From a virus, in the IMG/VR virus record IMGVR_UViG_3300027566_000006, positions 1 through 64,000 of that record: a stretch of DNA of 64,000 nt; one strand, written 5' to 3'. Shown in pieces: positions 4,701 through 22,901 of this stretch. A program made the position numbers and the translations under genes. Positions within the stretch are counted from its first letter, which is position 1, and each line of letters begins with the position of its first letter. A model generated the notes under the pieces. The model did not search any database, had not been told where the DNA came from, and saw only the letters and a list, made by a program, of their open reading frames with translations.

Positions 4701-7700
4701 TCTATGCGTGTTTGAATTTCATCTTCTGTTGCGTTATCTGAAACTTCTATTTCTTCATAATTATCTCTATTATTTGTATCCCAATAATATTTAATATACA
4801 TTATCTACTCCTTTCATTACCAAATCGCAGTTTTGTGTTGTTTTTAGACTTTAAGAATCCCATTATATCGGGTTTTAAAATTCACTCGATATATTTTCAA
4901 TCCAACATTTATAGCAAATTTTCATATCTTTTAAGTTCTTAGGGAAAGGAAATATGCGACCTTTATGATAAACATCTCTTGTTGAATTTCCACATAAATC
5001 ACATTTTACGTATTCTATTTTACTAGCACTGAACGATGGTTCAAATTCAACATAAACTTCAAATTCTTTTTCACATTTTTCACATTCCCAATCTAATTTA
5101 TTATCGTCACTTAAACCATCATATAATGCATCTGACATATCATTTTCTTTACCACAATACGGGCAATCAACAGTATTCATATATTTTCTCCTTTCATATT
5201 AATACCAAATTGGACTTTTATTCACTTAATGGTTCACCAAAAGCTTTATTTAATTCTTCTTCATTAATTGTCTGATCATCATTTACAAAAGTACAATCTA
5301 AAACCGTATGAAAATACTCATCACCTGTAACTCCACAGCCATTCCATTGATAACCTGATTTATAAAAATCACAATCATAACATTTCATATCTCTTATTCC
5401 TTCCATTTTTATATTAATTTTTTAGAAACATTATTATATTGGCATTTCTATACCCCTACCACTAATATAATAGTAATTTCTTATACCATATGGGGGTATA
5501 CGTTAATTGAATATTTCGGTTATTTGCGGATATTGCAAATCGCCGTAGTTTTTAGCAGCATTTTTATTTTTCTATTTCAATTAGATTATTAATAGAATCA
5601 CAACTATCTATAATATGTTGAATATAAATATCTGTATTTTCCTTTATATTTTGATTCAAATTCTGATACTCTAAAAATCCTTTAAAACTTTCTGCTTCAT
5701 TCTTAATCCACTTTATTTCATCATATATTTTTTGAATTGTATAATTATTTGTAATTACTACTTGTTCCATATAATATCCCTCTTTCCTAATTACAAAATC
5801 CATCAACCAAACATTTAAAAGTAGCATATAACTCTTCCAAACTTTCAAAATCAGTATTAATATTATTTCCGTTAGCAAAAATATCATATATATTTGCTTC
5901 TATTGTTGTATCGTATCCTTTACTAATCATCCACTCAGTCAATTTATTAAATAGATTTTTAATATATAACTTTTCTCCAACCATTCCATTTCTAAATTCA
6001 TATGCAGTTTCGATGCTAACTGAATATGTTTTATCTTTCTTATTATAAGTTATATCAATATTATTCAGAGTATACAGACTTGCTTCACTACTATTGCTTC
6101 GATCATCACTAGATTTAATTCCCCAAATAAATTCATATGTATCTTCATATTCTTGGTTACTTTTATTAATCTGATTTTGATACCATAATTTCTTTAATTT
6201 TTGTAACATAAATAGTCCTTTCTTTTTCTATGTATTATTTGTTTGCTTCGTATCTTTTATGATTAATTGTCTTAAATGCCAACCTAGTAAAATACCCAAC
6301 ATTAAGATACAACTAAATTCTAACCACCACATTTCATGCATGTTTATCACCTCACTATATAATGCGTATTATGGTATTGTGGAATAGGGGTTAAGCGTAA
6401 ATTTAGATAGAATAAATCATTATCTAATCAAACTTTGGTTATGAATTTACATCTCCGTATTTATTATTTTTAGATAAAATACGTCTATATTTACTTTTAA
6501 TATGATCCTCTAATTCTTGTCCTAAAGTCTTAATTATGCCATCCATTAAGTCATCTACTGCTTCTTTTGCTTTTGATTTTAAAGCGTTTGTTACTTCAAA
6601 AGTTTGCGAATATTCTCTAGCGAATTCTAATGCTTCTGCTCTTAATAAATCTTTAATTGTACTATCAATCCAGAGTCCTTTAATTTCCTTCATAACTGCT
6701 TCACTTAATACTTGTTTTTTTAAATCATCACCCATTGCTCCAATAAATTCTTGAGCCATCTTTTGTTTAACAATTTCTAAAATATCCGTATTTTCCATTA
6801 TAATATTCCTTCTTTCTTATATTTTTTTATTTTAATATTGTATCCAAAGGTAAGATTGATGTTGTTTTTATAATATTAAGCATGGATATCCATTAGGATG
6901 AGATTCTTCTGCCTCAATATGAATAATCCACTCATTACCACTAATGCCTGGAAGTCTTTGTCCTTCTTTCATTTGTTTTACTTCTTCAATTATTTCAAAC
7001 ATCCAAAGTTTATCTGTTTCGTAGAAATCTTCTGTATAATATTTACCACTTTCTTTGAAATATGTAAGTTTTATTTTATACACACTTTTCTCCTTTCTAA
7101 GTTGTTACCAATTTCGTATTTGATGCAAAAATGGATGCCTATATATTGGGATTTATGGCATACCTATTTTGAATTTTTTAATATAAATCCTTAGATAAGG
7201 TTTTTAATAATTCTTTTACTTCGTCAATTTCTGATAATCCTTGAATCGAATCTAGTATATCTTTTATTTCATTAACTCTTGTTTCTATATTATCTAATAC
7301 ACCATTCATATCAACACTTAATACATAAGTAGAAATATTATTATTCTTATCAAGCTCATCACTAAAATATGTATTATTATTTAATTTATCTCTATACACT
7401 CAATCTTTCTCCTTTCCAAATAAAATCAGATATTTATATTATTTTTAGTTCACTTAATTTCTTCTCTATAGCAATGCTTAGTTCGGTTCTACAGTTTAAA
7501 CAAGTATCATCAAATCCATATTCTTCAGAATGATCTCCTGGTAATGTAGGAATTTTAACATAAAGGGAACTCCGTGTTTTAAATCCAGCGTCATCCTCTC
7601 CAAATTCTTGACCACATATATCACATTTCCATCTATATATTGTTGCCATTAACAATCTCCTTTCCACTCATAATAAATTTAGGCTTTTATAATGATTTAT

Positions 7701-8594: not shown

Positions 8595-10331
8595 ATTAAA
8601 CTCCTTTCTCTAAATTTGATCCAATCAACTCTTTCATGCAAACCTATTCCCTGCATCAATCTTAGGTGGTTTTGATAAGTCACCATAAACAATATCGTCC
8701 TTTATTGTCTCTCTACAATTACCGCATATATGAACATCATTCCCACTTTCTATTTCTTCAAGTACACTTAGTCTTGAATTCATACTTTCGCACCATTGGC
8801 ATTTTAATTTCTTTGGTATACATTCTCTTATACAACCAGTTCTTTCCCTACAACTTCTATTATCAAATGCTGTCATAGGAGATGGAGTACAACCTGGAAC
8901 TACCAATGATCCTTTAGATTTATATTGCATATTTACTCCTTTCATTATCGAACAGTTCTTCTATTCTGACTTTACAAACCTCATCCACTTAATACTATCT
9001 TTATGATAATATTCGGATACTCCATCGTTCTCAATGTAATAACCTATTAAATTACATACCTCATCCATCACTGGTTCGATAAAATCAACTAATGTCCCTT
9101 CATGTTCAAAATCAAAACAAATTAATATATTCTCGTAGTTCATTTCATCAAACATTTCTTTAATTTTCATATTTACTCCTTTCTTTAACTCTGAACCTAT
9201 CCAACATTTCCTAATAATTTTTAATCATTTAAATGTAATTCTGCTTCATATTTTGTCACATAAAGTTTCTCCGCAAAAAGATAACGTGGATTATTCAAAT
9301 TATAACTTTCAGAATTTTTACTTATAAAAATTTCCTTTACTAAACCCCTATGTACTTTCTTTATCTCTTTATTTGGCAACCTGCTATTACAACAGGAACA
9401 AATCTCACCATATTCTGTTTCTTCCTCTATAAACCACGCAGTATCTCCAATATTAAATTTTGTTTTGTATCCTTCATTCATTATTATTTAATCCTCCCAT
9501 TCATCATCTTCATCATATTCATCTTTATATATTTCCTGTTTACTCAATTCAATCAACTGATCTAACAACAATCGTGTCAATCTCTTGTTAAAAATGTATT
9601 CATTGTATGCTCCACAACCATAATCAACATGTAATTGAAAACGATTTCCCTGTGATTGTTTTACCTTCTCAATAATATTAAACAGTCCACTACCCTTTAA
9701 ATCCGAGAACCAAACCCCTCTACCATACTGACCAGCAATAATAGAATATGTATAGAGTTTCTTAACTCCTCCGTCATGGATATCTTGACCATGTACGCTA
9801 ACTCTACCAAACCAATAATTAATAAACCGTTCCTTAAAGTTATTAAAGATGTATTGGATAACTTCTACTCTATCTTTCCAACTGGCTTTTAGAAATGCTT
9901 TGATTACTTTAAATACCATATTATCTCCTTTCATATTTATATTATTATTTTAATACCATACGGAATAAATTGCAACCATTATTTATTAATTAACTGCATA
10001 ATTGCTTTATATGTATTAGATCCATTAGTAGTGCTATCAACACTAAACGCTCCGTATTTCTTTTGATTATATCCGCTTTTCATTTCTTTAATTAACTCTT
10101 TAAAATTACCCATTCCATAAAACAGCAAATAAAATGGAAACAAAATAGTTGCTAATATTTTAGTTGGTAGATTTATAAACTTATGAATTAATATTTCATT
10201 TCCATTATAATAATACTCATATTTATCACACCATCTCATCTGCCTATATTTAAATAATTTATTATGTTGTTTCTTAGTTAATTTGAATTGTTTATATCCT
10301 TTGTCTAAGGGGTTGGTGTAAATGTAATTAC

Positions 10332-15931: not shown

Positions 15932-16321
15932 TTACTGCCATTTGTTAGTTGTATATTTTTGCCCTATATCCTTTTGATTAAATACTAATAATCCTTTACC
16001 TTCCGTAGAAAAAACAAGTGAGTTTTTATCTAACCATCCATTATATTCTTCAACCTTACATAAATTCCATTGATTAGGATGATTGCATATACTCACTAGA
16101 TTTTCAATTCCTTTTTCAATTCCTGTTAAAAGCCTATAGTAAGTTTTCTCAAACAGTAATTTATTTAATACTTCAAAGCTTTCTTCTTTAATTAATTCGT
16201 CTAACAATTTTATTTGAGAATTAAGATAAGAAATATCTTTGAAATTATATCCCTTATCTATTAATCCATTCTTCATAAAATTTAATACTTTATATTTCAT
16301 CCACATTGTTTTTAAAATCAT
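15932..16321 (-). CDS. Hypothetical protein coupled to the repressor gene
   Basis: ATGA overlap with the 16318..17280 stop. Confidence 0.6.
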   Translation of the reverse strand: MILKTMWMKYKVLNFMKNGLIDKGYNFKDISYLNSQIKLLDELIKEESFEVLNKLLFEKTYYRLLTGIEKGIENLVSICNHPNQWNLCKVEEYNGWLDKNSLVFSTEGKGLLVFNQKDIGQKYTTNKWQ

Positions 16322-17280
16322 TTAAGCAACAACTCCTCGTATTGCACAAATTTTTCTTTTAGTTTAAAAGGATAACCATAATCAAATCTATCACAAATAT
16401 CAATATAATCATCTTTTGTGACTTCGCCTTTTTCTCTATATATATCCATAGCCATTTGAATCATTCCTGATTCATAAACTGTTGTTGCTGTAAGATATGG
16501 ATTATCAACCCATTTCTTAATCCTCGTCATACGAGAATTAAATAAAGCTGAATGAAATTTTTCAAATTTGTTTTTACCAGGAATTCTAAAAATAAGATTT
16601 TCAAAACGATTAATTTTACTTTTTCTAGGATCAGCTATTCTAGGATTATTAGTTATCTCTCCGTTATTCTCAACGTAGATTTCTTGCTCAAAGGTATCCT
16701 TAATTAATCCTACAGTTGAAGTTTCAACTTTTATAGTCCTTATATCATCATTGTTATTTTTCCTTAGTTTAATTATATTATTGTCAAAGTCAACATCATC
16801 TATAGAAAGGTTAATAATTTCTTCTAATGTTTCATCTCCGACTGTTCTGCCTCTAACCCCTAAGAAAAGCAATTCTAAAAGCAACTGGTCTTGTTCATTA
16901 TATAAGAGTTTTTGGTAATCTTTCAATTTCTCTTTAGATATAAACTTATTTAATAAAGCTTGCTTGCTAACATGCTTTTTAATATCAATAAACCTTGCTC
17001 TATTCTCTTTGTGCAAAACCAAATTCTTGTTTATGCAAAAATCAATATAAGTTACTAAAATAGATTTATTTTTGTCTCCACTACTTTTTGAAGTATTCCC
17101 AAATTTAGAGAATAACTCGTCTAATTCAGAAATCGTTAAGTTATAAACTGGTTTATTAACCAATTGTTCATACTCATCTATTGTACGCAGAATAAAAGAA
17201 TCTGATTCAGCAGTAGCCGTAGGTTTACTGCTCAAATATTCTTGCTTGATTTCATTGTCTACTTCATAAACCATATCCAT
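16318..17280 (-). CDS. YopR/MrpR-like repressor with a catalytically degenerate tyrosine-recombinase fold
   Basis: 320 aa; box I-like LELLFLGVRG..EEIINLSIDDVDF but no HxxR or LGH..Y; directly follows a DGQHR gene, as yopR follows yopQ in SPbeta. Confidence 0.7.
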   Translation of the reverse strand: MDMVYEVDNEIKQEYLSSKPTATAESDSFILRTIDEYEQLVNKPVYNLTISELDELFSKFGNTSKSSGDKNKSILVTYIDFCINKNLVLHKENRARFIDIKKHVSKQALLNKFISKEKLKDYQKLLYNEQDQLLLELLFLGVRGRTVGDETLEEIINLSIDDVDFDNNIIKLRKNNNDDIRTIKVETSTVGLIKDTFEQEIYVENNGEITNNPRIADPRKSKINRFENLIFRIPGKNKFEKFHSALFNSRMTRIKKWVDNPYLTATTVYESGMIQMAMDIYREKGEVTKDDYIDICDRFDYGYPFKLKEKFVQYEELLLK

Positions 17281-17281
17281 T

Positions 17282-18649
17282 TTAAATCCCCTCCGTTAGT
17301 AAGTTATACAATTTAGTTCTTAGAGTTTTATTAGCATCCTTATTGTTGTTTACCATCCCTAAATCTTTCCATAGTTTATTAGTATTCTTGAAGTTAATAG
17401 ATTTCATCTGTTTCTTTAATATTTCTTTCCAATCTTTATTGTTTTGTAATTTAGCAGATAGAGCAATATAGGCATAGAAAATATTTTTATTATTAATCAT
17501 ACTGGTTTCTCTGATTTTATAGGGATCAGCTATAAATTCTTCTGAATATAACCCCATCAAATAATCAGTAAACTCAACAATCCACTTTCCTATATTTCTA
17601 ATATTACTACTTATTTTTAATTGTTCTTCGTAGCATTCTTTAATGGCTTCAGCAACAATACTCTTTTTAGTTAATGCTTTATTGAGCCTAATATAACTAT
17701 CTTCTTCTTTCATTACTTTAGCAAGTTCAGATAGTTTATCATCCACTATAACATCTATAACTAAATTTTCCGATTTATTATAATCCTTTAATTGTATCCA
17801 TTCTTTCTTCATAGGTTTTTGTTTATCTTTTTGGGTCATATAATCATGAGCAGCCTTTTCGGATAAAAATGTTATTGTGACTTGCCAATTAAACTGTAAC
17901 TCAGGATTTTCCATTAAAGCTAGAGTATTTGCTGTTTTTCGATGAAAACCGTCTACTATGTTGATGATGCTACCTTCATTGATTGTTAAAGTTTCCTTAT
18001 TATCATTATATGAAACGCTAGATTCACCATTGTTTAAAATATTTAAAATAATTGGATCTGGATATTGTTCTCCTGCAAGCATACGATCTTTAATTTCTTT
18101 AATTTTTACTTTATCTATATTTATTTGTTCTCCAAATGCAGTTATTTTAGGATTTCTCTGAGTAGAAAAATTATAAAGGATAGCATTTTTCTCATCTATC
18201 TCTCCTAATAACTGGGCAGACATAGGAAGTTGCCATATTCTACTCTCTGATAAACCTACCCTTTGAGCCTTTTCAAGCACTAGAGGAAAAATATCTTCAT
18301 TATTTTGTTCTTCTTTGTAATCTTTCCATTGATTATATTCTAATTCAGTAAAATAGTCTTGAGGATTAATTCTAAATTCACTATTTACTTTCGCTAATAC
18401 TTTCCCAAGTATAAGCGTAAAAAGAAATAGGAAACGAACATCGGTTTCAGAATCAGTGAGAGTATTTAGAGGGATATTTTCAGATAATACCCAAGTAGCT
18501 CGTAAACTACCATTAGTACTCCTTAACCCTCTTGATATAAACTCTTTTCTAACTTCCTCTTTGATGTCTTTATCGTATCCTATTCCCTTTACGATTTCGC
18601 TTAACTTATTTTTTAATTGTAATTCTTGCTGTTTAATCATTATTGACAC
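17282..18649 (-). CDS. YopQ-like DGQHR/DndB-family (ParB-superfamily) protein
   Basis: QRN motif and IVDGFHR motif; 455 aa; synteny with the YopR-like gene. Confidence 0.7.
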   Translation of the reverse strand: MSIMIKQQELQLKNKLSEIVKGIGYDKDIKEEVRKEFISRGLRSTNGSLRATWVLSENIPLNTLTDSETDVRFLFLFTLILGKVLAKVNSEFRINPQDYFTELEYNQWKDYKEEQNNEDIFPLVLEKAQRVGLSESRIWQLPMSAQLLGEIDEKNAILYNFSTQRNPKITAFGEQINIDKVKIKEIKDRMLAGEQYPDPIILNILNNGESSVSYNDNKETLTINEGSIINIVDGFHRKTANTLALMENPELQFNWQVTITFLSEKAAHDYMTQKDKQKPMKKEWIQLKDYNKSENLVIDVIVDDKLSELAKVMKEEDSYIRLNKALTKKSIVAEAIKECYEEQLKISSNIRNIGKWIVEFTDYLMGLYSEEFIADPYKIRETSMINNKNIFYAYIALSAKLQNNKDWKEILKKQMKSINFKNTNKLWKDLGMVNNNKDANKTLRTKLYNLLTEGI

Positions 18650-19224: not shown

Positions 19225-19962
19225 TTATTCGACTTTTTTAAAGATAGGTAGTGCAATAATACCACTTAATAACACTCCATACATTATAGAATTGCTCACC
19301 CAATTACTATTTATTGACAATTGTAAAATATATAATATGAAAATAATTACTAATGAAATGCCTTTAAACTTTACTTTCTCGTTATCAGTTAACAATCTAT
19401 TCTTATGTTCAACTGGTGCATATACCATAGCAATGACGAAAACTGTCAAAAAAATGGATAAATTTATTATATAATTGTATGGTATTAAAGCCGATAGTAA
19501 ACTGAATAGGGTTAAAGTAGCTAGAGATATCCATGCACATTTCGTATATGAGTTGAAGTGCAGACCCCCTACAAAGACTCTAAGCGACATAAATGCAAGG
19601 ACTACAACAAGCATTTGGGGTAATATTCCAAGAACAAGTCCGACAATTAAAAGGAGCGAACCCTTAATTAAAGCTCCCCATAAAATTTTAAAACCATAAT
19701 AATAAAAGTATTTATAATTGTGTTTTAGATATTTTCGACTTTGATAATCCTCGTTTAATAATTCTATTTTAGATTTTTGTTTTTTAGTTAAACCATCTAG
19801 AAATTTTATTATATTTTCTAATTTATTTATTAGTTTAGTATGTTTTTCTATTTCACCTATTAAACCTTCATGCATTTTTACCTGTAGCCATTTTGCTAAG
19901 ATATAAGAAAACCATTTAACGAATTTTAGAGTGTATAAATATTTTATATTTTTATTTTGCAT
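19225..19962 (-). CDS. agrB: Accessory gene regulator B (autoinducing-peptide processing peptidase)
   Basis: YGFKIL, LRVFVGGLH-x5-C (catalytic His/Cys) and YAPVEHKNRLL motifs; multiple TM helices. Confidence 0.9.
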   Translation of the reverse strand: MQNKNIKYLYTLKFVKWFSYILAKWLQVKMHEGLIGEIEKHTKLINKLENIIKFLDGLTKKQKSKIELLNEDYQSRKYLKHNYKYFYYYGFKILWGALIKGSLLLIVGLVLGILPQMLVVVLAFMSLRVFVGGLHFNSYTKCAWISLATLTLFSLLSALIPYNYIINLSIFLTVFVIAMVYAPVEHKNRLLTDNEKVKFKGISLVIIFILYILQLSINSNWVSNSIMYGVLLSGIIALPIFKKVE

Positions 19963-20266
19963 TTGTTACTATCCTTTTATATGTAAATCTTTTAGGTCTT
20001 CTTAAAACATTGTTATGTTTGTATATACTGTCGTATGTATCATACAGGCTTCGCTTTTGTGCTTGTAAATGATGTTTATTTTTTCGACTATTCCTATTCT
20101 TATGATATAAACAATATTTTTTATATATACAATCTGTTATTTCAATTTCCCATTGCTCAAGGGGTGTCTCCACTATAATTATATTTGCTAATGGAAACAC
20201 CTTAGAGCGAGTTTTGAATAACCTATCAAAATACTTAATTCTCTGTACCATTAATTCATCAATCAT
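19952..20266 (-). CDS. Basic hypothetical protein between the MazF fusion and agrB
   Basis: 104 aa, RBS present, overlaps the agrB start. Confidence 0.6.
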   Translation of the reverse strand: MIDELMVQRIKYFDRLFKTRSKVFPLANIIIVETPLEQWEIEITDCIYKKYCLYHKNRNSRKNKHHLQAQKRSLYDTYDSIYKHNNVLRRPKRFTYKRIVTNAK

Positions 20267-20291: not shown

Positions 20292-21152
20292 CTACAAGGC
20301 GCACACATAACTATTTGTGCTTTCATATTCATAAACTACATTTTCAATATTTCTATTATATTTTTTACAATAGTTAGCCAATCTACCAACTATATTATCT
20401 GATATACTACTTAATCCTCTTGACTTCTTTGTTTGGGGATGACTATTCAATACTTTAATTTGCTCTATCAATTCAAATGCAATATCATCATTAAATAAAC
20501 AGTCAATCAAACCTAATTGCTTCTCGATTGCCGTATTCACTTCAAATATTTTTTCTTCTGACAAGTCTAAAACCTTAATTGGCACTCTATTATAAAACAA
20601 TCTTCTTTTAGTCACTGTTCTTATTTGTTCGAGACAAATAATGCTATCTTGGCGCATACCTTCATTTGTTGTTATTTTTACATGCGTAGGCATTGGTCTT
20701 TTTTGTTTTGTAGTTAAAGGGGCTATGGTTAACATACTACTATTTTCATTGCCCTTATTATTTGAAATAATAAGGCAAGGTCTAATACCCTCTTGTTCAG
20801 AATCTAAGTTATTGAAACCAAGATCAATATAATAAATACTTCCTCTACTGGGATAATAATTTGCCCAACTTTTATCTTCATTAGGATCACACTTTGAATA
20901 ACCACAAATTTGACATAAATGTAAGTATGTAACTCTCCCCTGACTTGCTCTTTCTATAACTCTTAAGACTTCCCTTTCGGGTAACACAGAGATTTTCTTG
21001 TCTAGTATGTTATTGATGTAATTTGCATCCACCATACGGCAATCCTGAGCAAACATTTTTACTGACCTGTGACCTTTTGCAAAGTTTACCATTATTGCTA
21101 ATTCTTCCTTAATTGCTTCTAGGGATTTTTTATCCACCTTTTCAGTTGCCAT
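20292..21152 (-). CDS. mazF: PemK/MazF-family endoribonuclease with N-terminal XRE-like HTH and C-terminal extension
   Basis: RGSIYYIDL..SEQEGIRPCLIISN..TIAPLTT..PTHV..DSIICLEQIRTV matches MazF; the first ~95 aa look like an XRE HTH. Confidence 0.85.
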   Translation of the reverse strand: MATEKVDKKSLEAIKEELAIMVNFAKGHRSVKMFAQDCRMVDANYINNILDKKISVLPEREVLRVIERASQGRVTYLHLCQICGYSKCDPNEDKSWANYYPSRGSIYYIDLGFNNLDSEQEGIRPCLIISNNKGNENSSMLTIAPLTTKQKRPMPTHVKITTNEGMRQDSIICLEQIRTVTKRRLFYNRVPIKVLDLSEEKIFEVNTAIEKQLGLIDCLFNDDIAFELIEQIKVLNSHPQTKKSRGLSSISDNIVGRLANYCKKYNRNIENVVYEYESTNSYVCAL

Positions 21153-21296: not shown

Positions 21297-21440
21297 TTAT
21301 TTAGACAACATAGAAGGGGTTTTGGGCTGATTAAGCCACATAAAAGATGCTGTACCAGCTCCAGTTCCAGCATACTTTGCTACAAATCCAACAACGGTAA
21401 TAATAGCTACGGTTAAAACAGGAAACATATACTTCTTCAT
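21297..21440 (-). CDS. agrD: AgrD cyclic-lactone autoinducer peptide precursor (47 aa); absent from the ORF track
   Basis: MKKYMFPVLTVAIITVVGFVAKYAGTGAGTASFMWLNQPKTPSMLSK: hydrophobic leader, S-FMWL ring candidate, QPxxP tail, GAAAGGAG RBS. Confidence 0.9.
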   Translation of the reverse strand: MKKYMFPVLTVAIITVVGFVAKYAGTGAGTASFMWLNQPKTPSMLSK

Positions 21441-21468
21441 AAAATTCTCTCCTTTCTTTTAATTTAAT

Positions 21469-22260
21469 TTATACATCAATATCATCGAGCATATGCTGAT
21501 AAGATTGTTGTAACCCAAACATCTTAGATAATAAATAATTAATAGGGATTATATAAAGAAATATTAAAATTGTTGGTATAGTGGTAAATAAAATACTTAT
21601 CATAATTCGTATTATTGTTGATAATTCATTAAAAATATTGGAACTAGACATCCATTTTACTGCACTTGCTAAAACAAATAAAACTAAGCTAACAAATATT
21701 ACTGTAACTATTGAAAGAACTTTATCTTTAAAAATATTAGACATATACTTCTTTTCAAATATCATTGATTTATAATATATAAAATAAACTAGGAATATTT
21801 GAAATATTTTTACGGGTAATGTCATTAAAAATTTTACCCATATATTAGCATTAATTAATTCTAAAGATTCATTTGATAAGCCTAACATTAATGGAACATA
21901 TACCATTTCCGTGAGAGTTATAGCTATCATCCCAAATACAATTGCAATAATAATTTTATACCATTTAATACTATCTTCAATATAGTTTGTTTTTTCTAAT
22001 ATATATTTTAATGAAATAAATAACATTATTAATGGAATGAAGAATTTTAATACAAAATTAGGAATAATATAAATAAATATATTTATGCTTATTGCAGTTA
22101 AAACAGTAGGCAACGCCAACCATTTAATATTTTCTTTCCATCTATAAGTGTCTACTAAATCATGTCTTTTTAATTGTATTAAACATAATAATACCCAAAC
22201 AAATTCCTCTGGAATTGATATTAACCAAAAATTCAACAAGGCATTAATAACATTCTGCAT
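21469..22260 (-). CDS. AgrC-like multi-TM sensor domain lacking the histidine kinase domain
   Basis: 263 aa, about 7 hydrophobic helices, ends shortly after the last TM; immediately upstream of agrD. Confidence 0.55.
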   Translation of the reverse strand: MQNVINALLNFWLISIPEEFVWVLLCLIQLKRHDLVDTYRWKENIKWLALPTVLTAISINIFIYIIPNFVLKFFIPLIMLFISLKYILEKTNYIEDSIKWYKIIIAIVFGMIAITLTEMVYVPLMLGLSNESLELINANIWVKFLMTLPVKIFQIFLVYFIYYKSMIFEKKYMSNIFKDKVLSIVTVIFVSLVLFVLASAVKWMSSSNIFNELSTIIRIMISILFTTIPTILIFLYIIPINYLLSKMFGLQQSYQHMLDDIDV

Positions 22261-22337
22261 TTACCACACTCTCCTTTTATGTATTATACAATTATTACTA
22301 AATAGAGTATAGCATATATATTATGTTTTGTCTATAT

Positions 22338-22901
22338 TTATTTTATATTTTTGTTAGAATTTTTAATCGCATAGTAAAGGATGATAAATACGTACATTCT
22401 TATCATCAGATCACCGACTGAAACTATTGTCCAACCGAAATCAAAAATGTCACACAAATAAATCATTTTACAATAAGCATTACCTAATACATGTATACCA
22501 TCTTGGATAAATTCAGGTTTAACGTACCCCGTCCAATAAGATAAATCGGGAAATACTGGCATACCACCATTAGCTTTAACTGCAATTTTATTTAAGGTTG
22601 CCCCTAACCATAAGCAAAATGTAGCTATTACCATAGGAGACTTAATTAAACTACCATTTTTATCTTCATTTAGATTGTATTTCAGTATCAACGGTATGTA
22701 ACTCAATAACGTTGCTGTCTTTATGTAATAGGCATAAGGAATAAACCAGTAAATATTATTCCATATTGTGATTTCCAGAAAAATATAGAAAATAGCAAAT
22801 AGGAGTGGCGGGTATATGTGCCACGACTTAAATATTAGACTTAGTTTATATTTGTTTTTTAATTTGGCATATAAAAATGCCCCAATAATAAATTCAATCA
22901 A
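22338..22901 (-). CDS. DUF5317-like membrane protein
   Basis: LN..AVKANGGMPV and CDIFD..SVGDL motifs. Confidence 0.7.
   Translation of the reverse strand: MIEFIIGAFLYAKLKNKYKLSLIFKSWHIYPPLLFAIFYIFLEITIWNNIYWFIPYAYYIKTATLLSYIPLILKYNLNEDKNGSLIKSPMVIATFCLWLGATLNKIAVKANGGMPVFPDLSYWTGYVKPEFIQDGIHVLGNAYCKMIYLCDIFDFGWTIVSVGDLMIRMYVFIILYYAIKNSNKNIK

Follow-up and report, generated by a model that had tools for sequence, protein, structure and literature searches.

In peptide quorum sensing, the genes for the signal and for its receptor are normally linked. The AgrC-type (HPK10) histidine kinases, including S. aureus AgrC, clostridial AgrC-like kinases, VirS and FsrC, combine a seven-helix sensor with a phospho-acceptor histidine and an ATPase domain, and have an AgrA/LytTR partner; the canonical gene order is agrBDCA. 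MroQ, a polytopic CPBP/Abi protease required for AIP maturation in S. aureus, belongs to the agr-peptide pathway but lies outside the classical four genes (10.1101/516906; 10.1101/516914). The precursor encoded by the C. thermocellum orphan agrD (Clo1313_2818/Cthe_3383) yields a tail-less lactone pentapeptide, identified by LC-MS/MS (A24|S25...F29, Y30, P35); around this gene no agr operon was found, and no receptor was named (PMC5322536).

Phages also carry peptide signaling genes. In phi3T, the arbitrium genes aimR-aimP-aimX are located just upstream of yopP-yopQ-yopR (locus L063). The phi3T arbitrium acts through the host MazF (PMC10769878). The Clostridioides difficile phage phiCDHM1 encodes agr3, organized as agrC-agrB-agrD, with a full AgrC kinase and no agrA (PMC3901668). 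Here, we describe a phage agr cassette in which agrD is preceded by a gene for a kinase-less membrane protein, hereafter X. A literature search found no description of a conserved kinase-less AgrC-type family.

Organization of the phage agr cassette

The window, i.e., the whole stretch of DNA analysed, covers positions 1–64,000 of an IMG/VR virus record of 98,339 bp, whose completeness is estimated at ~56%. The sequencing runs that contain this DNA are groundwater metagenomes, and no RNA run is listed. The phage has the appearance of a temperate, SPbeta-type virus infecting a low-GC clostridial host. The genes around X are all encoded on the minus strand, and the transcription order is DUF5317-X-agrD-HTH-MazF-orf104-agrB:

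22338..22901, minus strand: DUF5317 membrane protein, 187 aa, first gene of the cassette (PF17248)
22306..22334, minus strand: promoter-like site TAGACA-17-TATACT, TG-extended, in the DUF5317-X spacer (consensus scan)
21469..22260, minus strand: X, kinase-less AgrC-type seven-helix sensor, 263 aa (ORF and ribosome-binding site)
21449..21453, minus strand: AGGAG ribosome-binding site of agrD, 15 nt past the X stop codon (read from the sequence)
21297..21440, minus strand: agrD precursor, 47 aa, ATG at 21440 (TIGR04223)
20292..21152, minus strand: HTH-MazF fusion, 286 aa, candidate output (PemK_toxin)
19952..20266, minus strand: orf104, small basic protein overlapping the agrB start (ORF list)
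19225..19962, minus strand: agrB, AgrD-processing membrane peptidase, 245 aa (PF04647)
17282..18649, minus strand: YopQ-like gene, directly downstream of the cassette (BLASTP, phrog_5732)
16318..17280, minus strand: YopR-like integrase-fold protein, SPbeta-type repressor homolog (tblastn, phrog_5830)

The DUF5317 gene scores 56.3 bits on PF17248 (E 4.9e-15; cut-off 25), agrD scores 21.2 bits on TIGR04223 (cut-off 19), and agrB matches PF04647 with an E-value of 2.4e-34. His135 and Cys142 of AgrB are invariant in the homolog alignment and lie seven residues apart, which we take to be the spacing of the catalytic pair in S. aureus AgrB. Orf104 shows no Pfam or PHROG family match, and among the related phage-type loci a homolog was seen only in locus L003. 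The promoter-like site is weak, as the region as a whole is no richer in such sites than shuffled sequences.

An AGGAG of its own precedes the ATG of X by 9 nt. Its C-terminus (...HMLDDIDV) lies 22 residues beyond the last predicted helix (helix 7), and the AGGAG and ATG of agrD follow 15–28 nt after the stop codon. The original prediction, which held that the membrane protein beside agrD ends after its helices with a clean stop followed by the agrD ribosome-binding site, is correct in this respect (TAA at 21469, AGGAG at 21449–21453). It also held that kinase and AgrA are missing, and indeed no HATPase_c, HATPase_c_5, LytTR or Response_reg domain was found in the window or in the ~56% complete record. 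Compared with canonical agrBDCA, AgrB and AgrD are thus both recognized in the phage cassette, whereas AgrA (receiver plus LytTR) is absent from the record at that completeness. The remainder of the phage genome may still encode a kinase or AgrA, or those of the host could be used.

The cassette in the arbitrium slot

The product of the YopQ-like gene matches phi3T_96, a yopQ homolog (BLASTP, E 5e-20), and this gene is syntenic in all related loci. The YopR-like protein shares 25% identity over 94% of the query with phi3T_97, a yopR homolog, and with other SPbeta-like phages (tblastn), and it matches phrog_5830 with an E-value of 2e-51. Given the position of aimR-aimP-aimX in phi3T, the agr cassette, located upstream of yopQ/yopR-like genes, occupies the arbitrium slot. 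The comparison is one of genomic position: both systems have this slot, a secreted phage peptide and a MazF ribonuclease in common. They share no homology, however. Arbitrium uses a linear imported peptide, a cytoplasmic TPR receptor and the host MazF, whereas the cassette has a cyclic agr peptide, a predicted membrane receptor and a phage-encoded MazF fused to an HTH-like domain.

Both phiCDHM1 agr3 and the present cassette are phage-borne agr systems without a response regulator. Unlike agr3, the cassette has a putative receptor devoid of any kinase, and DUF5317 and the HTH-MazF fusion are added. A tblastn search with X gave no match among 50,697 deposited phage records, and no DNA or protein match to the cassette was found in deposited phages.

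X is a complete member of a kinase-less family

X shows no match to any Pfam, NCBIfam or PHROG family. Neither the phospho-acceptor DHp helix (SPOB_a, HisKA) nor the ATPase domain (HATPase_c_5, HATPase_c) was detected in it. The AF2 model (mean pLDDT 78.8) has seven long helices, the last spanning residues 215–261. A Foldseek search with this model against the PDB gave nothing at E ≤ 0.001, the best VIA-align wide hits in the PDB (Z 7.2) were on unrelated helical proteins, and a PDB sequence profile search with X gave no match; we know of no solved structure for an AgrC sensor domain. The topology was predicted from the positive-inside rule and the analogy with AgrC, and the first loop would be cytoplasmic if the N-terminus is outside. 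This loop is the most conserved segment of X (mean column conservation 0.82), and the acidic tail is kept across the phage clade.

A word-indexed search retrieved 16 close clusters of 259–286 aa with 35–60% identity to X and no relatives among longer proteins. An exhaustive phmmer search of 1.84 billion representative proteins retrieved 85 relatives, all ≤339 aa, and no Pfam domain was found in those scanned. Homologs of about 260 aa had been anticipated; the relatives are consistently about 260–340 aa, too short for a GHKL ATPase domain, and none is a kinase. Judged by sequence, X is a member of a stand-alone kinase-less family, and a recent truncation is therefore excluded.

Like MroQ, X is a polytopic protein associated with the agr-peptide pathway outside the classical four genes. 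Unlike MroQ, it gave no PF02517 match even with the E-value limit set at 1. Of the EExxxR, FxxxH and HxxxN motifs of CPBP/Abi proteases, the 16- and 72-sequence alignments show only an EE pair, with no conserved R or His motif. A CPBP/Abi protease assignment was therefore rejected.

Relationship of X to the AgrC-type sensor domain

Profile comparison by hhalign of the X family with 33 HPK10 kinases gave 97.4% (E 9e-12) over 144 columns covering helices 1–5, and comparison with the sensor halves of ten AgrCs adjacent to agrB/agrD gave 91.9% (E 7e-7). The latter score is about as good as that between two groups of real kinases (93.4%), while reversed alignments, column-shuffled alignments and AgrB gave ≤0.4%. 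A 72-sequence X-family profile was run over 400 genomes of the class of a cassette-carrying MAG. It also matched the N-terminal membrane region of two 452–453-aa kinases that contain SPOB_a, HATPase_c and HATPase_c_5 and adjoin receiver plus LytTR regulators. The ESM Atlas model of X is nearest to clusters of 418–436-aa HATPase_c_5 kinases, with TM scores of 0.60–0.68 over residues 7–263. Three motifs are common to X and the kinases, namely VS[IV]PE in helix 1, E..xP in helix 4 and LP in helix 5. These alignments and models identify X as a true relative of the AgrC-type sensor domain, and its description as AgrC-like and kinase-less is upheld.

Bacterial members of 290–320 aa align with the kinases over 255 columns, reaching into the DHp hairpin (95.3%), but are without the RHDFxNH phospho-acceptor motif that is invariant in the aligned kinases. 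As far as the alignments indicate, the X family is devoid of both the phospho-histidine and the ATPase domain, and the phage forms also lack the DHp-like hairpin. X thus has a seven-helix sensor homologous to that of AgrC/HPK10 kinases and differs from them in lacking the phospho-acceptor histidine, the ATPase domain and an AgrA/LytTR partner. The genes for X and AgrC both adjoin agrD and agrB; the X gene precedes agrD, whereas the AgrC gene follows it.

Coupling of X to agrD in phage-type and bacterial loci

Nine related large phage-type contigs, comprising eight IMG/VR contigs (42–230 kb) and a 170-kb contig in a Bacillota MAG, share the order DUF5317-X-agrD-HTH-MazF-(orf)-agrB with two conserved genes after it. 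As the cassette proteins are only 31–55% identical across these contigs, the recurrence is far beyond chance. The pairing of X with DUF5317, noticed originally in the window alone, therefore recurs with it.

The X family is also chromosomal, with matches in 26 of the 400 genomes, and neighbourhoods were counted in 20 bacterial loci. An agrD-like ORF lies directly downstream of X in all 10 phage-type loci and in 17 of the 20 bacterial loci; in both sets it begins only a few bases from the end of X, and in the bacterial set it often overlaps the stop codon. The agrD-like ORFs encode a hydrophobic leader followed by [C/S], four residues, one spacer residue and QPxxP. agrB adjoins X in eight bacterial loci, either as agrB-X-agrD or divergent from X-agrD, and locus L045 holds agrB, DUF5317, X and agrD together. 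XRE proteins of one family, each containing a pair of HTH-like repeats and a common C-terminal motif, flank X-agrD in 7/20 bacterial loci, and no HTH gene adjoins X in the other 13/20.

Some X genes stand without agrD. This is the case in L035–L037, and in L006–L009 a second X paralog follows agrB with no second agrD. The diverged paralog (~8611–9687, plus strand) may be a receptor for a foreign peptide. Upstream of the 320-aa X subgroup, L033, L035 and L036 encode a conserved protein of ~125 aa (123–131 aa) with no Pfam family, with AMP-binding enzymes near these genes.

The linkage to agrD, the copies without agrD, which suit a listener, and the motifs in common with kinases point to X as a receptor. 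With moderate confidence, we propose that X is the cognate autoinducing-peptide receptor and signals without phosphotransfer, likely via an HTH partner and with a lysis-lysogeny output.

The main alternative is that X assists in AgrD maturation or export: it would present the precursor to AgrB, aid leader removal or carry the cyclic peptide through the membrane, and would reuse the AgrC fold without any sensing. We consider this doubtful, although the tight X-agrD coupling fits such a helper equally well: the two genes are translationally coupled or overlapping nearly everywhere, as is typical of enzyme-substrate pairs. X lies between agrB and agrD in L046–L048, and other X-agrD pairs lack a neighbouring agrB, which would suit X being the less dispensable of the two. 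To our knowledge, the export route of the peptide is unknown in all agr systems, which leaves room for a helper of this kind. A C. perfringens agrB mutant was not complemented by agrB and agrD alone, whereas a clone adding two upstream hypothetical genes complemented it (PMC2706048); were these two genes X-like, the result would also fit an accessory. On the other hand, the S-x-P-E, E..xP and LP motifs of X are those of kinases, which sense rather than process, and X has no conserved Cys/His or CPBP-type motif. The X copies without any agrD (L006–L009, L035–L037) are a better fit to a listener than to a biosynthetic enzyme. Moreover, C. thermocellum has its AgrB elsewhere in the genome, so its orphan agrD needs no new cyclase (PMC3880215).

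A role of X in modulating AgrC-type kinases was also considered, in which it would act as a peptide sponge or decoy, or as a dominant-negative or dominant-positive partner in mixed oligomers formed via the membrane domain. The retained sensor fold is compatible with this, as is the His-less DHp-like hairpin of the long forms, a dimerization and regulator-docking element. X-carrying host genomes also have several full AgrC/AgrA sets, and the reliance of a phage on agr parts of its host has a precedent in phiCDHM1 (PMC3901668). However, phage X is without the DHp-like hairpin, and bacterial X adjoins its own agrD rather than kinases: 19 of the 20 bacterial loci have no adjoining kinase, and in L037 one kinase-like ORF lies ~3.7 kb away. 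The idea of a decoy that jams the host AgrC, part of the original prediction, is likewise weakened by bacteria carrying X natively, coupled to their own agrD. Modulation of kinases therefore appears improbable, and less likely than an accessory in maturation or export.

The predicted peptide

The AgrD of the window has a predicted core S-F-M-W-L, followed by N-QPKTP. In 10/10 phage-type AgrDs a Ser is located five residues before x-QP[KE]xP, mostly with an Ala before it. The phage AgrD shares with the C. thermocellum orphan agrD the Ala|Ser-x4 ring followed by x-QPxxP. From the C. thermocellum lactone peptide (PMC5322536), we infer the ring and the leader cleavage site of the phage AgrD; read in this way, the phage product is probably SFMWL, a Ser-lactone pentapeptide with no tail.

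Genome G207, probably that of C. thermocellum or a close relative, has an agrD with the published numbering (A24|S25, F29, Y30, P35) 36 nt downstream of an X gene. The papers on the C. thermocellum orphan agrD leave its receptor unnamed and the upstream membrane gene unmentioned (PMC5322536; PMC3880215). The X genes of G207, a draft genome with no AgrB match, are at L064 (G207:C66), 6082–7125, and L042 (G207:C170). The two X-agrD pairs without an AgrB match raised the idea that X replaces AgrB. The case is weak, G207 being a draft, and the AgrB located elsewhere in the C. thermocellum genome counts against it (PMC3880215). A canonical agrB-agrD at L054 (G180:C6, 5456–5596) has the core CWFWSL, one residue off the R. 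cellulolyticum Rc-AIP1 core CWFWSY (PMC8251862), which gives a hint of the taxon of G180.

X might alternatively be an immunity protein against a growth-inhibiting cyclic peptide, in the manner of bacteriocins. Growth was slowed by 50 uM of the C. thermocellum lactone pentapeptide, which closely resembles the predicted phage peptide (PMC5322536), and the X gene is tightly paired with the peptide gene. The homology of X, however, is to a signaling sensor, agr peptides are signals in all studied cases, and toxicity of the phage peptide is without support. We regard immunity as very improbable, and as less likely than a role in maturation or export.

HTH-MazF and DUF5317

HTH-MazF is composed of an HTH-like domain, a MazF domain and a ~70-aa helical tail, with no mazE nearby. 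Residues 103–212 match PemK_toxin (E 4.2e-24), and a PHROG MazF-like match was also obtained. The N-terminus weakly matches a PHROG transcription regulator (E 2e-4, residues 15–67) and aligns in register with the bacterial XRE family by hhalign, at 4% only. The fusion contains the only PemK domain in the record and is present in all phage-type loci. A separate 140-aa MazF-like gene is located ~3 kb upstream in L002, L003 and L006–L009 and is absent from this record. No MazF was found in the 20 bacterial X loci examined; MazF is therefore not a general partner of the X family. Complex prediction of X with HTH-MazF gave a median of 0.46, compared with 0.37 for the control.

DUF5317 adjoins X in the phage-type loci L002–L004 and L006–L010 and, among the 20 bacterial loci, only in L045. 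It is otherwise not linked to agr, being found also in Thermus and Thermotoga and, elsewhere, beside secA. DUF5317 was originally suggested as a possible co-receptor; it accompanies X in phage loci but in only one of the 20 bacterial ones. The AF2 model of DUF5317 has a pLDDT of 80.4, the matching ESM Atlas clusters are 94–100% DUF5317, and no fold match to this model was found in the PDB. The residues N104, N111, M114-P115, H137, D151 and S161-x-G163-D164 (window numbering) are invariant in DUF5317, and such motifs could suit a membrane enzyme. A literature search found no paper mentioning DUF5317.

Proposed role of X

X would descend from the polytopic, peptide-sensing part of AgrC-type (HPK10) histidine kinases and stand alone, in a lineage from which the phospho-accepting histidine and the ATPase domain have presumably both disappeared. 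The phage AgrB would cut and cyclize AgrD into the SFMWL lactone, which would then bind to X and be read by it. Because X has no kinase, its signal would have to pass by protein contact, and we suggest a ligand-dependent protein-protein contact as the relay. The conserved first loop, predicted to be cytoplasmic, and the conserved acidic tail are the likely contact surfaces.

The most likely partner would be the XRE-type HTH protein encoded beside X, represented in the phage by the HTH-MazF fusion. The recurrent XRE neighbour in bacteria and the occurrence of HTH-MazF in every phage locus make the HTH protein the leading candidate. As the cassette sits in the arbitrium slot, the output is probably the lysis-lysogeny decision.

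A broader scheme can be drawn more tentatively. X and the XRE-type HTH protein would form a new, phosphorylation-free agr-peptide pathway that supplies the missing receptor of clostridial orphan agrD/agrBD genes. It would have been recruited by SPbeta-like clostridial phages for an arbitrium-like lysis-lysogeny switch, with a membrane-held HTH-MazF ribonuclease under the control of peptide-bound X. This whole scheme is possible, and we put it forward as speculative.

Many Clostridia carry agrD or agrBD without a linked AgrC/AgrA, for example C. difficile agr1 and the highly expressed C. thermocellum orphan agrD. A kinase-less AgrC-type protein tied to agrD is a concrete candidate for the reader of such orphan agr peptides. 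The cassette also suggests that large clostridial phages may run a cyclic-peptide counterpart of arbitrium with a membrane receptor, and the phage-borne MazF in this circuit recalls the recent finding in Bacillus phages that arbitrium is linked to MazF. If its proposed role is true, X would be an uncommon example of a histidine-kinase sensor domain that functions by itself.
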